Both the position numbers and the translations under genes were made by a program. From the IMG/VR virus record IMGVR_UViG_3300029305_011318: a stretch of DNA of 64,000 nucleotides. One strand, 5' to 3'. The DNA comes from a virus (taxonomy: Duplodnaviria > Heunggongvirae > Uroviricota > Caudoviricetes). Position 1 is the first letter of the stretch, and each line of letters opens with the position of its first letter. The notes beneath the pieces were generated by a model that searched no databases, was not told where the DNA came from, and was given only the letters and a program-made list of their open reading frames with translations. Below are positions 1,226 through 59,972 of this stretch, in pieces.

Positions 1226-1253
1226 TATTATATGTTTAAATTTTTCTCAAAAA
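1226..1253 (-). promoter_or_regulatory. Box-1 promoter-like motif (TTTTGAGAAAnTTTTAnnCATATAA in gene orientation)
   Basis: tattatatgtttaaatttttctcaaaaa on the + strand. This is one of about 20 near-identical copies upstream of minus-strand genes. Confidence 0.5.
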
Positions 1254-1317
1254 TTTCATTATCTCGTTAATATACAATTTCATTATTATTCAGTTTCTTT
1301 ATTGTTTAACAAACGGT

Positions 1318-1497
1318 TTATTTGATTAATACATCTGTAGCAATAAATATAATTGGCATAAATAAAACCATCATAATATTGTCTACAGGTCTATTTACAA
1401 TACATCCATCAATCAATTGTTCAAGCCAACTCCATACACCACAATATGCAAGTGTAATAACTAGAGTTAGACAAAATCTTATAATTAATCGCTCCAT
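1318..1497 (-). CDS. Small membrane protein, 59 aa
   Basis: ATG at 1497, TAA stop, hydrophobic helices. Preceded by a box-3 leader element at 1565..1588. Confidence 0.3.
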   Translation of the reverse strand: MERLIIRFCLTLVITLAYCGVWSWLEQLIDGCIVNRPVDNIMMVLFMPIIFIATDVLIK

Positions 1498-1981
1498 ATT
1501 TTAATACCTTTCAAAATCTCAAATTAAAACTCAAATGATTTTAGTTTCTATTTAAGTTTCTTCGCTAAAAGTCAGTCCTACGGTTTAGTTAATCTCTAAT
1601 TTTCTAAATACTCATCCCAAGCATTTGAAAGATAGTCTGCACCTTCTTTATCATCAGTAATAATGATTGTGTATTTTCCGAGTGTTATGGATGCAAAACC
1701 TGCACCAGATGTTTCCATAGCATCTATCATTGTTTTTATCGTTTCGTTCATTCTGTTATCCTCCTAACATTCAGTTAATCATCTAATTTATGAGTAGACC
1801 AAATGACATTTTCGTTTTCTTCTGCTAAGACTTTAATAATTACCTTAATCGCATTAGCAACACTTTTAGGTACTGTAAAATTGACAACTTCTTTACTTCC
1901 CCAATCGCAAAATTCTATATTAGTCTTTTTCATATTTACCTCTCTAAAATTCAGTTTACATTACATTATTACTGCTCTTCT

Positions 1982-2013
1982 TATACTATACGGTGTTTTT
2001 TTTATTTTGAAAG
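1982..2013 (-). promoter_or_regulatory. Box-2 promoter-like motif (CTTTCAAAAATAAAAAAnACCGTATAGTA in gene orientation)
   Basis: tatactatacggtgttttttttattttgaaag on the + strand. Sigma-A-like TTTCAA-16/17-TATAGT. Followed immediately by a box-1 copy at 2007..2034. Confidence 0.45.
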
Positions 2014-2096
2014 ATAATCATATATGTTTAAATTTTTCTCGAAATATAAAAAACACTTATTAAATACATAATAAGTGTTTCTTGAATTTTGATTTA

Positions 2097-2873
2097 TTAC
2101 ATAATTCTGATAATCTGCTCGTATAAAATAATATCTTTGTCATTGATAGCACGATTAATATGCATATGACCCATAAAATGTTTTTTATATTCGGTATTGA
2201 TTCGAATTTCTTCTAAATATTGTGTAAGCCTATCTTGTTCATATAAACCATGACCAAGTAATGCAGTCACACTTGCAGATGGACTATGTGTTATAATATA
2301 ATCTACTTTGTTATTATGTTTCTTGAGATTATCTAACCCATTTTGCATTTCTTCTTCTGTTGGAAGTTCTTCCGTCCACCAAGATAAGCCTTTAATACGA
2401 TACATGTATTTGCCTTGTTTTTCGAGATTACGGGCTTTTTCTTTCCAATCTGGGTCATTTTTGTCTAAAATACCATCAGAAATATCATGAGAAGAAGCTC
2501 CACCAAACGCAAAGAATTTTTTATCTCCTAAAGTAAATACTTCTCCACGCATTAAGTGTAATACATGTGGTCTGATTTCATGTACTTTTCCGCCATTCCA
2601 TTCTTTTACGGGATAAGTGGCTAAACGTTCATGATTTTCATGATTTCCATCTACAAATACGGTTGTAAAAGGTTTGTTTTCTAACCAATCTAACCAATTT
2701 TTTTCTTGATTGGATTCTTCCGGCATCCAAACTAATCCAAAATCACCATTAATAATTACAATATTTTCATTTTTATTGCCACTAAATTCTTTTTGTTCAT
2801 AAAAATTTTCTACATTTAATCGTCTTGGATTTCCATGAATATCTCCGGTGCTCCAAATAGATTTAATTGTCAT
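2097..2873 (-). CDS. Calcineurin-like metallophosphoesterase
   Basis: GDIHGN, GDFG, DGNHEN and GHMH phosphoesterase motifs. 258 aa. Confidence 0.75.
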   Translation of the reverse strand: MTIKSIWSTGDIHGNPRRLNVENFYEQKEFSGNKNENIVIINGDFGLVWMPEESNQEKNWLDWLENKPFTTVFVDGNHENHERLATYPVKEWNGGKVHEIRPHVLHLMRGEVFTLGDKKFFAFGGASSHDISDGILDKNDPDWKEKARNLEKQGKYMYRIKGLSWWTEELPTEEEMQNGLDNLKKHNNKVDYIITHSPSASVTALLGHGLYEQDRLTQYLEEIRINTEYKKHFMGHMHINRAINDKDIILYEQIIRIM

Positions 2874-2950
2874 ATATTCACTTCCTTTTTAAATCAATAT
2901 ACTTATTGAATCATTTTTTACACTCCTTAAACCTTGATGAAATGGAAAAT

Positions 2951-3271
2951 CTAAAGATATACGCCACTGAGTTTGAAAAACATTCTGGATACATCGCTCA
3001 TTCTTTCAATTAACTCCGTAGATTTCTTTTCTTTATCAATTATCTTCTTCATATCCTCTTCTGAAAGTTCAGTGTATTCGAGCAATCTTTTTACCCAATC
3101 TCTAAGCTTATAGAGTTCTTCTAAATCACTTGCAATACTTTCATTCTGTGATGCAATTATCTTTTCTTTTTCTTTTAGTTGTGATTCCAATTCTCTAATT
3201 CTCTTGTTATACTTTGCTCTTTCTTTATCAAACGCTAAATCTTTAGCAGATTTCTTATAATTTGATGCCAT
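2951..3271 (-). CDS. Coiled-coil hypothetical protein
   Basis: ORF with ATG at 3271 preceded by GGAGGG. K/E-rich heptad-like sequence. The tool-called TTG start at 3292 is less likely. Confidence 0.5.
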   Translation of the reverse strand: MASNYKKSAKDLAFDKERAKYNKRIRELESQLKEKEKIIASQNESIASDLEELYKLRDWVKRLLEYTELSEEDMKKIIDKEKKSTELIERMSDVSRMFFKLSGVYL

Positions 3272-3279
3272 AAACCCTC

Positions 3280-58307: not shown

Positions 58308-58379
58308 CAGGGGTAGAAGGATTCGAACCTTCGAATGCAGGAGTCAAATTCCTGTGCCTTACCGCTTGGCGATACCCCT
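58308..58379 (-). tRNA. tRNA-Gln (anticodon UUG)
   Basis: AGGGGTA-TC-GCCAAGCGGTAAGGC-A-CAGGA-ATTTGAC-TCCTG-CATTC-GAAGG-TTCGAAT-CCTTC-TACCCCT-G. U33 and A37 present. Box-2 promoter about 35 nt upstream. Confidence 0.85.
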
Positions 58380-58413
58380 AAATGAGAAATTTTATATCTT
58401 TTCTCTTTGGTAT

Positions 58414-58446
58414 TATTACTATACGATGTTTTTTTATTTTTGAAAG
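58414..58446 (-). promoter_or_regulatory. Box-2 promoter-like motif upstream of tRNA-Gln
   Basis: attactatacgatgtttttttatttttgaaag. Gene orientation: CTTTCAAAAATAAAAAAACATCGTATAGTAATA, i.e. TTTCAA-16-TATAGT. Confidence 0.5.
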
Positions 58447-58665
58447 GTTTTTAAAAATATATTTTATTTTTTTAAAAAGAGGTGAGGCAACCGTTAATGA
58501 TTGGTGTGTCAATAGTGATAAAAGGGGAGGTATTTGTGGCTCGGCTGCCTCGTAAACAAATGAAAAAATGAATTGTTATAAAAAGCTTTACTGTATTTGC
58601 TTTTCTATACTTATATGTAAAAAATTTTCTCAAAACCTTTCATTTTTTTATAAAATAATAAAAAA

Positions 58666-59268
58666 TTATATATTTTCTATTTTATATGGAATTAGTACTG
58701 TTAACGTTTTCATGTTTAACACTGGATTGTCAATATTTATATTTTCCATAACCGTTAACATATCGAATGAAAAATTTTTTCTTATTATATTTCCGGTTTT
58801 ATTTTCTGTACAAACAAACACTGCATTAAATATATCTTCTTGTACATAATATAATTGCTGTGTGATTGTTAATTTTGAATTTTTATATAATTCATTCATT
58901 TCAATTAATGCTAATTTTAATTCATTTTCATGATAAATATCTTCATCTTCTTCTGTTGCAACGGCAATAGGAATTCGAAAATATTGATATAAAAAATTTC
59001 CAGTTAAATGAATGAACGGTAATGTACTACAAATCAATATAGTAAAAAATATATAAATTGAAATTACAATAAAAGAGGACGTAATAAATATATTATAAAG
59101 CAATACAATTATACATAGTAATGCAATAAAGAAATGTCCAAAAGTACAAAATGCATTATATAATTCTGTTTGTTTTAATAATTTATTATAATCTTCTACT
59201 TCTTGTAATATTTTCTTTTTTGTGGCTTTAGATAATGGATTTATAATATCTAAATTTGCGTAAATCAT
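58666..59268 (-). CDS. Polytopic membrane protein
   Basis: Several TM helices, 200 aa. Confidence 0.5.
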   Translation of the reverse strand: MIYANLDIINPLSKATKKKILQEVEDYNKLLKQTELYNAFCTFGHFFIALLCIIVLLYNIFITSSFIVISIYIFFTILICSTLPFIHLTGNFLYQYFRIPIAVATEEDEDIYHENELKLALIEMNELYKNSKLTITQQLYYVQEDIFNAVFVCTENKTGNIIRKNFSFDMLTVMENINIDNPVLNMKTLTVLIPYKIENI

Positions 59269-59280
59269 ACTCTCTTTATT

Positions 59281-59919
59281 TTACCTCCTTACTATTATTT
59301 TTTCTTCCCAAGGTATTGTTAAAATTCCTGTTACACAATCTAATATTGGAGTTTTAGAATTAATATTATATTTTTTAGCACACAATGGTAGTTTAAAAGA
59401 ATATTCTGAAATATCTCCGTTTTCATTACTAAAAATATAATCAATATTAATATTATCTTCATCTTCGGTTTTATCAAACAAGTTTGTTATAATACGTTTT
59501 TTTTCACAATGGCTATTTTTATGATTTTCTAAAAAAGTTTTTAAAGTTAACAATCCTTTATAATAATCTAATTTATGAAATACATTTTCTAATTCTGAAT
59601 ATTCTTCCGGATACTTCTTTTTTAAATGAAGTAAAACTTTTTTATTGTGGTTATTATCTTCGATAATAAAACATATTATTACTATTATTACAGCAATTAA
59701 AAGGCTTATCGGGTTACTTTGAATCGCTAACCGAAAGCCGAAAATTACAAATGCAAAACAGGCTAATAATTGAATTGATTGCTGTAAAATTATTAAATGA
59801 TTAATTTTATCTTTTGTTTTTTTGATTTTATCAATATTATCTTTTAATTTTATTAAATCAATATCTGAAAAATTTTTAAATTCGATATGATTAAATTCTT
59901 TTGTCATATTATCCTCCAT
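59281..59919 (-). CDS. Membrane protein
   Basis: Two or three TM helices, 212 aa. Confidence 0.5.
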   Translation of the reverse strand: MEDNMTKEFNHIEFKNFSDIDLIKLKDNIDKIKKTKDKINHLIILQQSIQLLACFAFVIFGFRLAIQSNPISLLIAVIIVIICFIIEDNNHNKKVLLHLKKKYPEEYSELENVFHKLDYYKGLLTLKTFLENHKNSHCEKKRIITNLFDKTEDEDNINIDYIFSNENGDISEYSFKLPLCAKKYNINSKTPILDCVTGILTIPWEEKIIVRR

Positions 59920-59946
59920 TATTTATCCGTAATATCCATATCTACA

Positions 59947-59972
59947 TTTATATGGGTAAAACTTTCTCAAAA
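59947..59972 (-). promoter_or_regulatory. Box-1 promoter-like motif
   Basis: tttatatgggtaaaactttctcaaaa. The integrase terminator hairpin atccagaaa...tttctggat (about 59993..60027) is just upstream. Confidence 0.55.

Follow-up and report, generated by a model that had tools for sequence, protein, structure and literature searches.

A repeated promoter-like box and an orphan sigma-70 family factor in a prophage-like element of Lachnospiraceae

Introduction

Ever since SPO1 and T4 it has been known that phages can have promoter classes of their own, read by sigma factors that they encode, and DNA in which one short box stands in front of gene after gene raises the question of which factor reads it. 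The stretch considered here, IMG/VR virus record IMGVR_UViG_3300029305_011318 (Caudoviricetes; 64,000 nucleotides (nt), hereafter the window), belongs to a prophage-like element that is at least 80 kb long and integrated into a tRNA-Thr gene of a Lachnospiraceae bacterium. An initial annotation had described about 20 near-identical boxes of 26 nt in minus-strand orientation and had assigned them either to a sigma factor encoded in the window or to an activator of the T4 MotA type. We analysed the window and its continuation, altogether ~82 kb of the element on a 128-kb contig (~46 kb remaining), and conclude that the boxes are well supported as the element's own promoter class and are not generic sigmaA promoters.

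Results

Searched with up to three mismatches, the 26-nt pattern matched 15 places in the window against 0.03 expected, all of them on the minus strand. A 40-nt weight matrix built from these 15 matches and run over both strands gave 20 full sites at a cut-off of at least 22 bits (range 22-42 bits), again all on the minus strand, and none in ten shuffles, so that the count and orientation first described hold. Sixteen of the 18 coordinates listed in the initial annotation were right within 1-3 nt; the box given as 15663-15688 lies at 15653-15678 and that given as 2007-2034 at 2019-2044, and two boxes, 55611-55636 and 29199-29224, had been overlooked.

The conserved unit, which we call the class A box, comprises 32 nt (TTTTGAGAAAatTTTAnnCATATAAAnaTAgA; consensus in gene orientation T-T-T-T-G-A-(G/C)-A-A-a-a-t-T-T-T-A-n-(a/c)-C-A-T-A-T-A-A-A-n-a-T-A-n-A), with T3, A6, T15, C19-A24 and T29 invariant in all 20 sites. 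The gap between TTGAGA and TATAAA is 12 nt, as had been noticed from the start, and conservation does reach past a plain -35/-10 pair, running 6-8 nt beyond the 26-nt box (T29 in 20/20 sites, A30 in 18/20, A32 in 17/20). Overlooked in the initial annotation were the status of the 3' half of the box, which is the core, and the second promoter class treated below. A rescan with positions 12-34 only recovered all full sites and added two core-only sites in the window (position 1 at 51928 and 41803), which are without TTTTGAGAAA and occupy the same position in the module; a third core-only site precedes NrdD, just outside the window. The single plus-strand match of this rescan stands in front of the sigma gene. 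In total, the window holds 20 full boxes and two core-only sites, all on the gene strand, and one partial plus-strand copy, and nine further sites follow in the 18 kb past the window start. The sites in the window and the genes next to them are as follows.

59941..59972 (-), full class A box, 37.2 bits, 26-nt box 59947-59972; precedes 212-amino-acid (aa) and 200-aa open reading frames (ORFs) beside the integrase; terminator 19 nt upstream
58604..58635 (-), full class A box, 39.3 bits, 26-nt box 58610-58635; upstream of a class B promoter, tRNA-Gln and ROOL RNA
56866..56897 (-), full class A box, 41.6 bits, 26-nt box 56872-56897; precedes a 168-aa ORF
55605..55636 (-), class A box with weak 5' half, 29.2 bits, 26-nt box 55611-55636; Shine-Dalgarno sequence AAGGAG from box position 34, ATG 19 nt past position 26
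51897..51928 (-), core-only class A site, 3' half 27.7 bits, no TTGAGA; terminator directly before
50974..51005 (-), class A box, 39.4 bits, 26-nt box 50980-51005; precedes the gene of a 1811-aa repeat protein
44525..44556 (-), class A box, 37.9 bits, 26-nt box 44531-44556; precedes a 129-aa ORF
44006..44037 (-), class A box, 40.0 bits, 26-nt box 44012-44037; precedes two SPFH/Band-7 genes
41772..41803 (-), core-only class A site, 3' half 19.5 bits; precedes a bactofilin-domain gene
37498..37529 (-), class A box, 41.4 bits, 26-nt box 37504-37529; precedes small ORFs and a metallophosphatase gene
36030..36061 (-), class A box, 38.0 bits, 26-nt box 36036-36061; precedes a 117-aa ORF and an NT5C-like nucleotidase gene
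29267..29304 (+), variant box before the sigma gene, core AATTTGAACATATAAGAATAAG, 3' half 14.2 bits; TTTTGAAA lies ~5 nt further upstream than in other boxes
29193..29224 (-), class A box divergent from the sigma gene, 38.1 bits, 26-nt box 29199-29224; followed by a ~280-nt leader and then CAP-domain, RuvC-like resolvase, PcfJ-like and R2K ATP-grasp genes
23173..23204 (-), class A box with weaker 5' half, 30.1 bits, 26-nt box 23179-23204; precedes an HNH/homing-endonuclease-like gene
20815..20846 (-), class A box, 38.3 bits, 26-nt box 20821-20846; precedes a 296-aa ORF
18978..19009 (-), class A box, 37.9 bits, 26-nt box 18984-19009; precedes a 275-aa ORF
17401..17432 (-), class A box, 34.9 bits, 26-nt box 17407-17432; precedes an AAA_14 ATPase gene
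15647..15678 (-), class A box, 31.8 bits, 26-nt box 15653-15678; precedes the gene of a CCA-adding enzyme, ATG 17 nt past position 26
13939..13970 (-), class A box, 39.9 bits, 26-nt box 13945-13970; precedes a 500-aa ORF
11912..11943 (-), class A box, 38.6 bits, 26-nt box 11918-11943; precedes a 197-aa ORF
9513..9544 (-), class A box, 40.4 bits, 26-nt box 9519-9544; precedes an operon for HNH, NrdG-like radical SAM, T5orf172, CSD and HD proteins
2013..2044 (-), weak class A box, 22.0 bits, 26-nt box 2019-2044; abuts the class B promoter 1985-2013
1221..1252 (-), class A box, 35.0 bits, 26-nt box 1227-1252; precedes PHA02142 OB-fold, RNA ligase, SIR2 and NMN-transporter genes

The boxes do lie upstream of start codons, over a wider range than the 30-50 nt first given: from box position 26 to the next start codon we measured 17-97 nt, typically 27-66 nt, with two exceptions, namely the 29224 box (283 nt to the start codon) and the 58635 box, which precedes tRNA-Gln and ROOL RNA. 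Where JGI gene calls were available, each of the 12 boxes covered lies between genes and has the orientation of the next gene. The description of the boxes as mostly following a hairpin terminator was also borne out, since a hairpin with a T-tail was found within 75 nt upstream of 15 of the 22 sites compared with 39 of 400 random positions, ending 6-40 nt before the box; across the window, terminator-like sites are enriched ~3-fold. A gap of 6-40 nt between terminator and box is too short for another promoter, which makes the box a start signal at the DNA level and not an RNA element. Directional and intergenic, and arranged in modules of terminator, box and ribosome-binding site, the boxes are thus best taken as promoters other than generic sigmaA sites. 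The leader between the 29224 box and the CAP-domain gene (28916-29198, minus strand; ~280-340 nt) is unusually long and poor in ORFs, and had no match in Rfam.

The distinction from sigmaA promoters could be made in several ways. The most constrained base of sigmaA promoters is T at -7, and in the 20 sites no reading frame of the box gives a -10 element with this T at 16-18 nt from TTGAGA. A T at the last base of the candidate -10 hexamer occurs in 2/20 sites when the hexamer is placed at positions 21-26 and in 1/20 at positions 27-32, and at 18 nt from TTGAGA the hexamer reads nATAnA, thus ending in A. When the canonical set of features was applied (TTGACA, 16-18 nt, TATAAT, A at -11 and T at -7), only two of the 20 boxes passed (1250-1222 and 44035-44006). 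A sigma-70 consensus scan of the window was unenriched, with 146, 131 and 143 sites found against 147, 163 and 153 expected. Together, these results agree with the original view that the boxes are not generic sigmaA promoters. Phages of Enterocloster, which also belongs to the Lachnospiraceae, carry canonical repeated TTGACA-17-TATGATATAGT promoters, so the host family appears to use the standard consensus. The conservation is asymmetric, positions 21-22 being invariant and their mirror positions 17-18 variable, and this together with the strict orientation argues against a dimeric operator; a palindromic operator reading was rejected on account of the asymmetry.

The spacing to ribosome-binding sites constrains where transcription could begin. 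At the 55636 box the Shine-Dalgarno sequence occupies positions 34-39, and in related phages it starts at box position 30 (L119 site 3229 and L124 site 3386), which would put the start site at or before about position 30 and favours CATATA (positions 19-24) as the -10-type element. A -10 element at positions 24-29 (AAAnaT, 15-nt spacer) was rejected because the start would fall past Shine-Dalgarno sequences that begin at positions 30-34, and one at positions 27-34 is excluded by the same limit on the start site. With CATATA as the -10 element, TTTTGAGAAA would lie at about -28 to -19, too near for the normal contact of sigma4 at -35. The upstream half could be read by the same sigma factor in an unusual geometry, by a second protein, or by nothing sequence-specific.

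The sole clear plus-strand gene of the window encodes a protein that could serve such promoters.

29327..29902 (+), gene of a 191-aa sigma-70 family factor with sigma2 and sigma4 and no sigma3 (TIGR02937, PHROGs, PDB profile, AF2 and Foldseek)

The assignment as a sigma factor proposed in the initial annotation was corroborated by TIGR02937, which matched residues 16-180 with 52.9 bits against a cut-off of 42.9, and by PHROG 351 and PHROG 1740 ('RNA polymerase sigma factor') at 5e-15 and 1e-14. The top match of a PDB profile search was SigH (3mzy, 8.8e-22), with residues 8-95 matching region 2 of SigA/RpoD chains and residues 82-173 matching region 4 of sigma chains. The AF2 model (pLDDT 85) has helical domains at residues 13-93 and 118-190 joined by a low-confidence, flexible linker, and Foldseek returned SigH of B. 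subtilis as its best match, all top matches being sigma factors. The protein scored far below the cut-offs of the SigH equivalog models (23.9 bits against 294.8 for TIGR02859; 25.3 against 208 for NF006148); it is therefore nearest to SigH without being a SigH equivalog, and is an orphan. An exhaustive search of 1.84 billion representative proteins yielded 820 distant relatives of at most 38% identity, and a word-index homologue search returned only the 191-aa protein itself. It is a genuine sigma-70 family protein, predicted to bind core RNA polymerase and to initiate at promoters.

The promoter of the sigma gene has only the core of the box, with a TTGAAA at sigmaA-like spacing (TTGAAA-18-TATAAG). 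The plus-strand copy of the box that had been reported at 29267..29300 is accordingly real in its 3' half (14.2 bits) and is a partial variant, with TTTTGAAA displaced by ~5 nt. At the other end of the gene, a hairpin with a 20-bp stem (29899-29946) lies between the convergent sigma gene and a 207-aa ORF and could terminate transcription in both directions.

The best evidence for a connection between box and sigma factor comes from the comparison with sigma relatives. The nearest ones with contigs, P0004 (L036-L038) and P0013 (L119), are 32-36% identical to the window's protein, and all three proteins have an insertion between regions 2.1 and 2.2 in common. On the phage-like contigs of these two relatives the bipartite box recurs (cTTTnaAGAAAA-TTTTAAnCATATAnAnATAG), 20-50 nt before genes and with the half-to-half spacing of the window, for example GTTCAAGAAAA-TTTTAAGCATATATAAATAGTTA in L037 and CTTTGCAGAAT-TTTTAAACATATAAAAATAAGAT in L119. 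At 6 bits or more the core matrix found 7, 5 and 4 matches on them against 0.3-0.4 expected. A core also precedes their sigma genes, with 24 bits directly before the gene in L119 and 13 bits in L036; in all three lineages the sigma gene opposes its neighbours and has the core only as its own promoter. By tblastx the relatives' contigs have only four genes in common with the element, namely those for the sigma factor, a 74-aa protein, a HipA_C-like protein and an S26 peptidase, and the sigma factor is the one DNA-binding protein among them. Box and sigma factor may travel together, as judged from two or three lineages and short contigs. The nearest relatives have two sigma paralogs ~500 nt apart, each preceded by a class-A-like core, and the 82 kb of the element read hold a single sigma gene.

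L036 1706-2269 and 2789-3334, paired sigma paralogs
L037 7550-8113 and 8663-9208, paired sigma paralogs

Among 80 IMG/VR loci with more distant sigma relatives (27-37% identity), drawn from phages of 80-177 kb and found by a pattern made from 12 sequences, the box was not enriched (13 matches against 11.6 expected). Some of these loci have quite different boxes of their own, such as AACnATTAAGGTTATA in L041 (IMGVR_UViG_3300045988_142724). In this large phage a box AAC(T/A)ATTAAGGTTATA is repeated at 3131, 5687, 10530, 11679, 12578 and 16850, with no more than 7-25 nt between it and the Shine-Dalgarno sequence that follows. In this group of gut and rumen phages, compact phage-specific boxes seem to be common.

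The exact pattern of the class A box had no match in IMG/VR and none in 185,579 species genomes, and in JGI metagenome contigs it gave two single matches, both without the downstream extension, in a collection that evidently does not contain the element's own contigs, which makes the absence weak evidence. A literature search for CATATAAA matched no phage promoter.

The intergenic regions without a class A box share a different motif, (c/t)CTTTCA-N17-TATA(A/G)T, in which CG directly precedes the -10 element (CTTTCA-N17-cCGTATArT). This class B has a proper -10 element at normal spacing and was found eight times against 0.30 expected, always on the minus strand and seven times in intergenic DNA.

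1985-2013 (-), class B promoter
31521-31549 (-), class B promoter
34366-34395 (-), class B promoter
39693-39721 (-), class B promoter
45413-45441 (-), class B promoter
52997-53025 (-), class B promoter
58418-58446 (-), class B promoter
56299-56306, further class B site, CGTATAAT
L008 ~15776-15810, further class B site

Class B is found mostly where class A is missing, among runs of small ORFs (at 30-35 kb and 38-40 kb), and also directly before tRNA-Gln and ROOL RNA and upstream of a small ORF that precedes tRNA-Met; in three places it follows shortly after a class A box. It was not found in the contigs of the sigma relatives. In a simple reading, host sigmaA would use class B, either early or constitutively, and the element's sigma factor would use class A. 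The reverse assignment is conceivable, since CGTATA also resembles -10 elements of the ECF type; it is less favoured because the cores before the sigma genes and the box of the relatives belong to class A.

Discussion

Which factor reads the class A box, where its transcripts start and when they are made we infer from this arrangement. To the explanation that class A is an element-specific promoter class read by host core RNA polymerase with the element's own 191-aa sigma factor we give an even chance, and reading by this sigma factor with autoregulation is the most economical account. Host core RNA polymerase with the two-domain sigma factor would bind the 32-nt box, and the invariant core TTTA-nn-CATATA(AA) would act as the -10-type element of melting and recognition, with transcription probably starting ~4-8 nt downstream of CATATA, inside the conserved a-T-A-g-A stretch. 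At a distance of only 10-12 bp from this core, the upstream half TTTTGAGAAA would be an accessory element that strengthens or modulates class A promoters in most cases but not in all. Intrinsic terminators, each shortly before the following box, would insulate the genes and short operons from one another, and the expression of ~30 units would then depend on one factor. At the sigma gene, whose promoter combines the core with TTGAAA, host sigmaA could start expression and the new sigma factor could reinforce it.

Several observations weigh against this explanation. All support for the sigma factor as the reader comes from sequence. Autoregulation, as first proposed, fits the box in front of the sigma gene, but such a box is equally expected if the class merely drives that gene, in the way that gp28 promoters drive genes 33 and 34 of SPO1. 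The three sigma factors that accompany the box differ in their predicted DNA-reading helices (region 2.4 being CMESKYI, CMQHAMI and CMNNAMN), which would be odd if all of them read one and the same CATATA. A gap of 12 nt between TTGAGA and TATAAA misfits the fixed sigma4/sigma2 geometry of known sigma-70 family holoenzymes, and the Shine-Dalgarno sequences from box position 30-34, at two sites of relatives and nearly so at one site here, force the start very near CATATA. The two supporting lineages are themselves related (~70% nucleotide identity), so that the comparison amounts to effectively 2-3 independent points, and another sigma factor, an activator or a phage RNA polymerase may be encoded in the rest of the contig.

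Some of these points count in favour of the main rival explanation, which we consider unlikely: class A would be real and its reader another phage sigma factor or activator encoded in the rest of the element, or host sigmaA remodelled in the manner of MotA and AsiA with the upstream half as activator box, and the 191-aa sigma factor would be a product of class A that directs a later class elsewhere. The core-only box of the sigma gene, here and in both relatives, the adjacent sigma paralogs of the relatives and the differing region 2.4 helices would all suit such a cascade, and the 12-nt gap is similar to that in T4, where the MotA box and the -10 element are 11-13 bp apart. SPO1 provides a precedent for cascades of this kind (PMC13401047), but only one sigma gene was seen in the 82 kb, the -10-like element is without the T at -7 that sigmaA needs, and no MotA, AsiA or other activator matched Pfam or PHROGs among the ~35 ORFs scanned, which include a minority of the small ORFs. 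The activator of the MotA type binding a -30 box, as offered in the initial annotation, found no positive support, as the -10 element is also not TAnnnT. We also consider it unlikely that the promoter is truly bipartite, its upstream element being read at 10-12 bp from the core by a single two-domain sigma factor or by this sigma factor with a partner; the bipartite layout with its fixed spacing is kept across phage lineages whose sigma factors are only ~35% identical. If this were true, the distance would be ~5 bp below the limit of the sigma-70 family holoenzymes characterised so far, and it would point to a repositioned sigma4 or to MotA-like appropriation in phages of Clostridia.

The other candidates place the reader further away. 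It is improbable that class A serves a non-sigma RNA polymerase of the phage (T7-like single-subunit, YonO-like or other) encoded outside the window, with CATATA immediately before +1 and AAnATAGA as the initially transcribed sequence. The block of ~21-32 nt that is conserved in numerous co-oriented copies, and in which conserved purine-rich sequence follows CATATA, does look like the promoters of T7 and SP6 (e.g. CACTATA followed by GGGAGA), Shine-Dalgarno sequences from box position 30-34 favour a start right after CATATA, and L119 has a partial ORF of 982 aa without assigned function. Against this stand the ~115 kb examined (82 kb of the element and 34 kb of relatives), which held no RNA-polymerase-like gene, and the fact that the sole transcription protein travelling with the box is a sigma factor; to our knowledge, T7-like RNA polymerases are not the norm in temperate phages of Firmicutes. 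We see a slim chance that the box is read by an alternative sigma factor of Clostridia hosts (sigmaE, sigmaK or sigmaG with a CATA-type -10, or sigmaH), in which case conservation across phages would reflect a conserved host factor. Lachnospiraceae do sporulate, and the start of the invariant core, CATA, resembles the -10 element of sigmaE, sigmaK and sigmaG, which is of the CATA type in the Helmann and Moran consensus. These three factors need a T near the end of the -10 element (CATAcAnT, CATAnnnTA), however, where the box has A in 16/20 sites, and the exact pattern was absent from the species genomes searched. The elements GAGAAAAT and TAGAa recall the -35 element AGGAAAAT and the -10 element TAGAAT of C. 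difficile sigmaH (PMC7438776, Table 3), but to fit the spacings of sigmaH sites the TAGA element would have to be 5 nt nearer to GAGAAAAT, and CATATA ~3-5 nt further away. Very improbable, finally, is a box that is chiefly an operator for a repressor or other DNA-binding protein over weak generic promoters, or a repeat without a role in transcription. A prophage needs global silencing and TTTTATA-CA-TATAAAA is nearly palindromic in some copies, but symmetry-related positions are unequally conserved, every copy is oriented with the genes, the terminators leave no room for another promoter and no sigmaA-like -10 element is nearby.

Compared with known systems, class A represents a familiar phage strategy in an unusual, compact bipartite layout and in a previously unseen element. 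As for the middle and late promoters of SPO1, served by gp28 and by gp34 with gp33, a sigma factor of a Firmicute phage accompanies many copies of a promoter that is not of the sigmaA type, and the conserved motifs are co-oriented and lie immediately upstream of phage genes. The -35 and -10 elements of SPO1 promoters are ~17-18 bp apart, whereas here only 10-12 bp separate the upstream element from the core, and some sites make do without the upstream half; the 191-aa sigma factor has no specific similarity to gp28 or gp34, being nearest to SigH with low scores, and the present element is temperate (integrase, tRNA-Thr site) and known from its sequence alone. In SPO1, small phage proteins of the sigma-70 family redirect the host core RNA polymerase, and the sigma genes lie behind promoters of the preceding class (PMC13401047).

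The middle promoters of T4, which have a MotA box at -30 and use AsiA, resemble class A in that an upstream box ~12 bp from a -10-like element replaces the -35 element and in that many copies precede genes of nucleotide metabolism. They differ in the final T of their -10 element (TAnnnT), which occurs in only 2/20 boxes here, A standing in its place, and the element carries a sigma factor of its own and no MotA or AsiA homologue among the ORFs scanned. With the late promoters of T4 (TATAAATA; gp55, gp33 and the sliding clamp) class A shares an extended -10-only core rich in TATAAA; TATAAATA occurs literally in 6/20 boxes, and some genes have the core as a module by itself. In contrast to that system, most boxes keep an upstream half, the invariant part is CATATA and not TATAAATA, and the 191-aa sigma factor has a region 4 helix-turn-helix that is absent from gp55. 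The SigH promoters of Bacillus and Clostridioides (AGGAAAAT ... TAGAAT) are similar in having GAGAAAAT-like and TAGAa-like elements, and the sigma factor is nearest to SigH by structure and profile, whereas the spacing of the elements is 5 nt longer here and the invariant CATATA has no counterpart there. The promoters of T7 and SP6 are likewise nearly invariant, oriented blocks of more than 20 nt with C-A-(n)-T-A-T-A before the likely start, in many copies along with terminators; no equivalent of their polymerase gene was seen in the 82 kb of the element read or the 34 kb of relatives, in which a sigma factor travels with the box.

If the assignment of class A to the element's sigma factor is confirmed, the box maps ~30 transcription units of a large uncultured prophage lineage of Lachnospiraceae, whose genes are mostly of no known function. 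The orphan sigma factor and its candidate recognition sequence could serve as an orthogonal expression tool in Firmicutes of the gut and rumen. With two halves that stay close together even in distant relatives, the box would also be a useful test case of how minimal sigma factors position their domains.

Other features of the element

The element has a GC content of ~27%, with nearly all genes on the minus strand, and runs at least 18 kb past the window start. The right end of the window is host DNA with 39% GC, which contains an AcrB-family fragment (87% protein identity to one in a Lachnospiraceae metagenome-assembled genome), a TetR gene and a partial tRNA-Thr(GGT) at 61642-61692 that forms the junction between element and host; in related Lachnospiraceae genomes this tRNA gene is intact beside the same TetR and AcrB genes. 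A tyrosine integrase (60049-61434) is encoded just inside the junction, and the other end of the element lies outside the window.

Genes typical of a large phage encode thymidylate synthase, NrdD (with an intein), NrdG, the NT5C-like nucleotidase, RNA ligase with the PHA02142 OB-fold and the CCA-adding enzyme. The element also carries genes for an HD protein, the RuvC-like resolvase, homing endonucleases and the R2K ATP-grasp protein, two tRNAs and a full-length ROOL RNA, and cargo-like genes for SPFH, bactofilin, LRR and MCP proteins, three HipA_C-like proteins and the 1811-aa repeat protein. No structural genes were found in the ~82 kb of the element read. Megablast of 22 kb against GenBank phages gave one tRNA match only, protein searches with the 733-aa and 500-aa ORFs returned almost nothing, and every other contig of the element matches the window at 100% identity; by these searches the element is very isolated. 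The ROOL RNA (57748-58321, minus strand) matches Rfam RF03087 with 294 bits over model positions 1-574 of 574 and lies immediately 3' of tRNA-Gln (58308-58379, minus strand), with a slight overlap; both are preceded by a class B promoter and, further upstream, by a class A box.

The NrdD gene, just past the window start (L008 10001-13264), is split by an intein with a LAGLIDADG endonuclease. NrdD proteins of ~66% identity with the same intein architecture occur in other prophages of Clostridia, which have similar end-of-genome integrase layouts and no class A box.

The acidic 74-aa protein (21893-22117, minus strand) belongs to no family, and proteins 70-85% identical to it were found in 64 clusters from many metagenomes. 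A HipA_C-like gene always follows it directly, in the window at 20898-21902 (minus strand), and the two form a conserved two-gene module; the element has three HipA_C-like genes in total, the two others on L008. A role of the 74-aa protein as a transcription cofactor was considered and rejected because it is always paired with the HipA_C-like gene and its loci are without a sigma gene, and it is probably the partner of the HipA_C-like gene.

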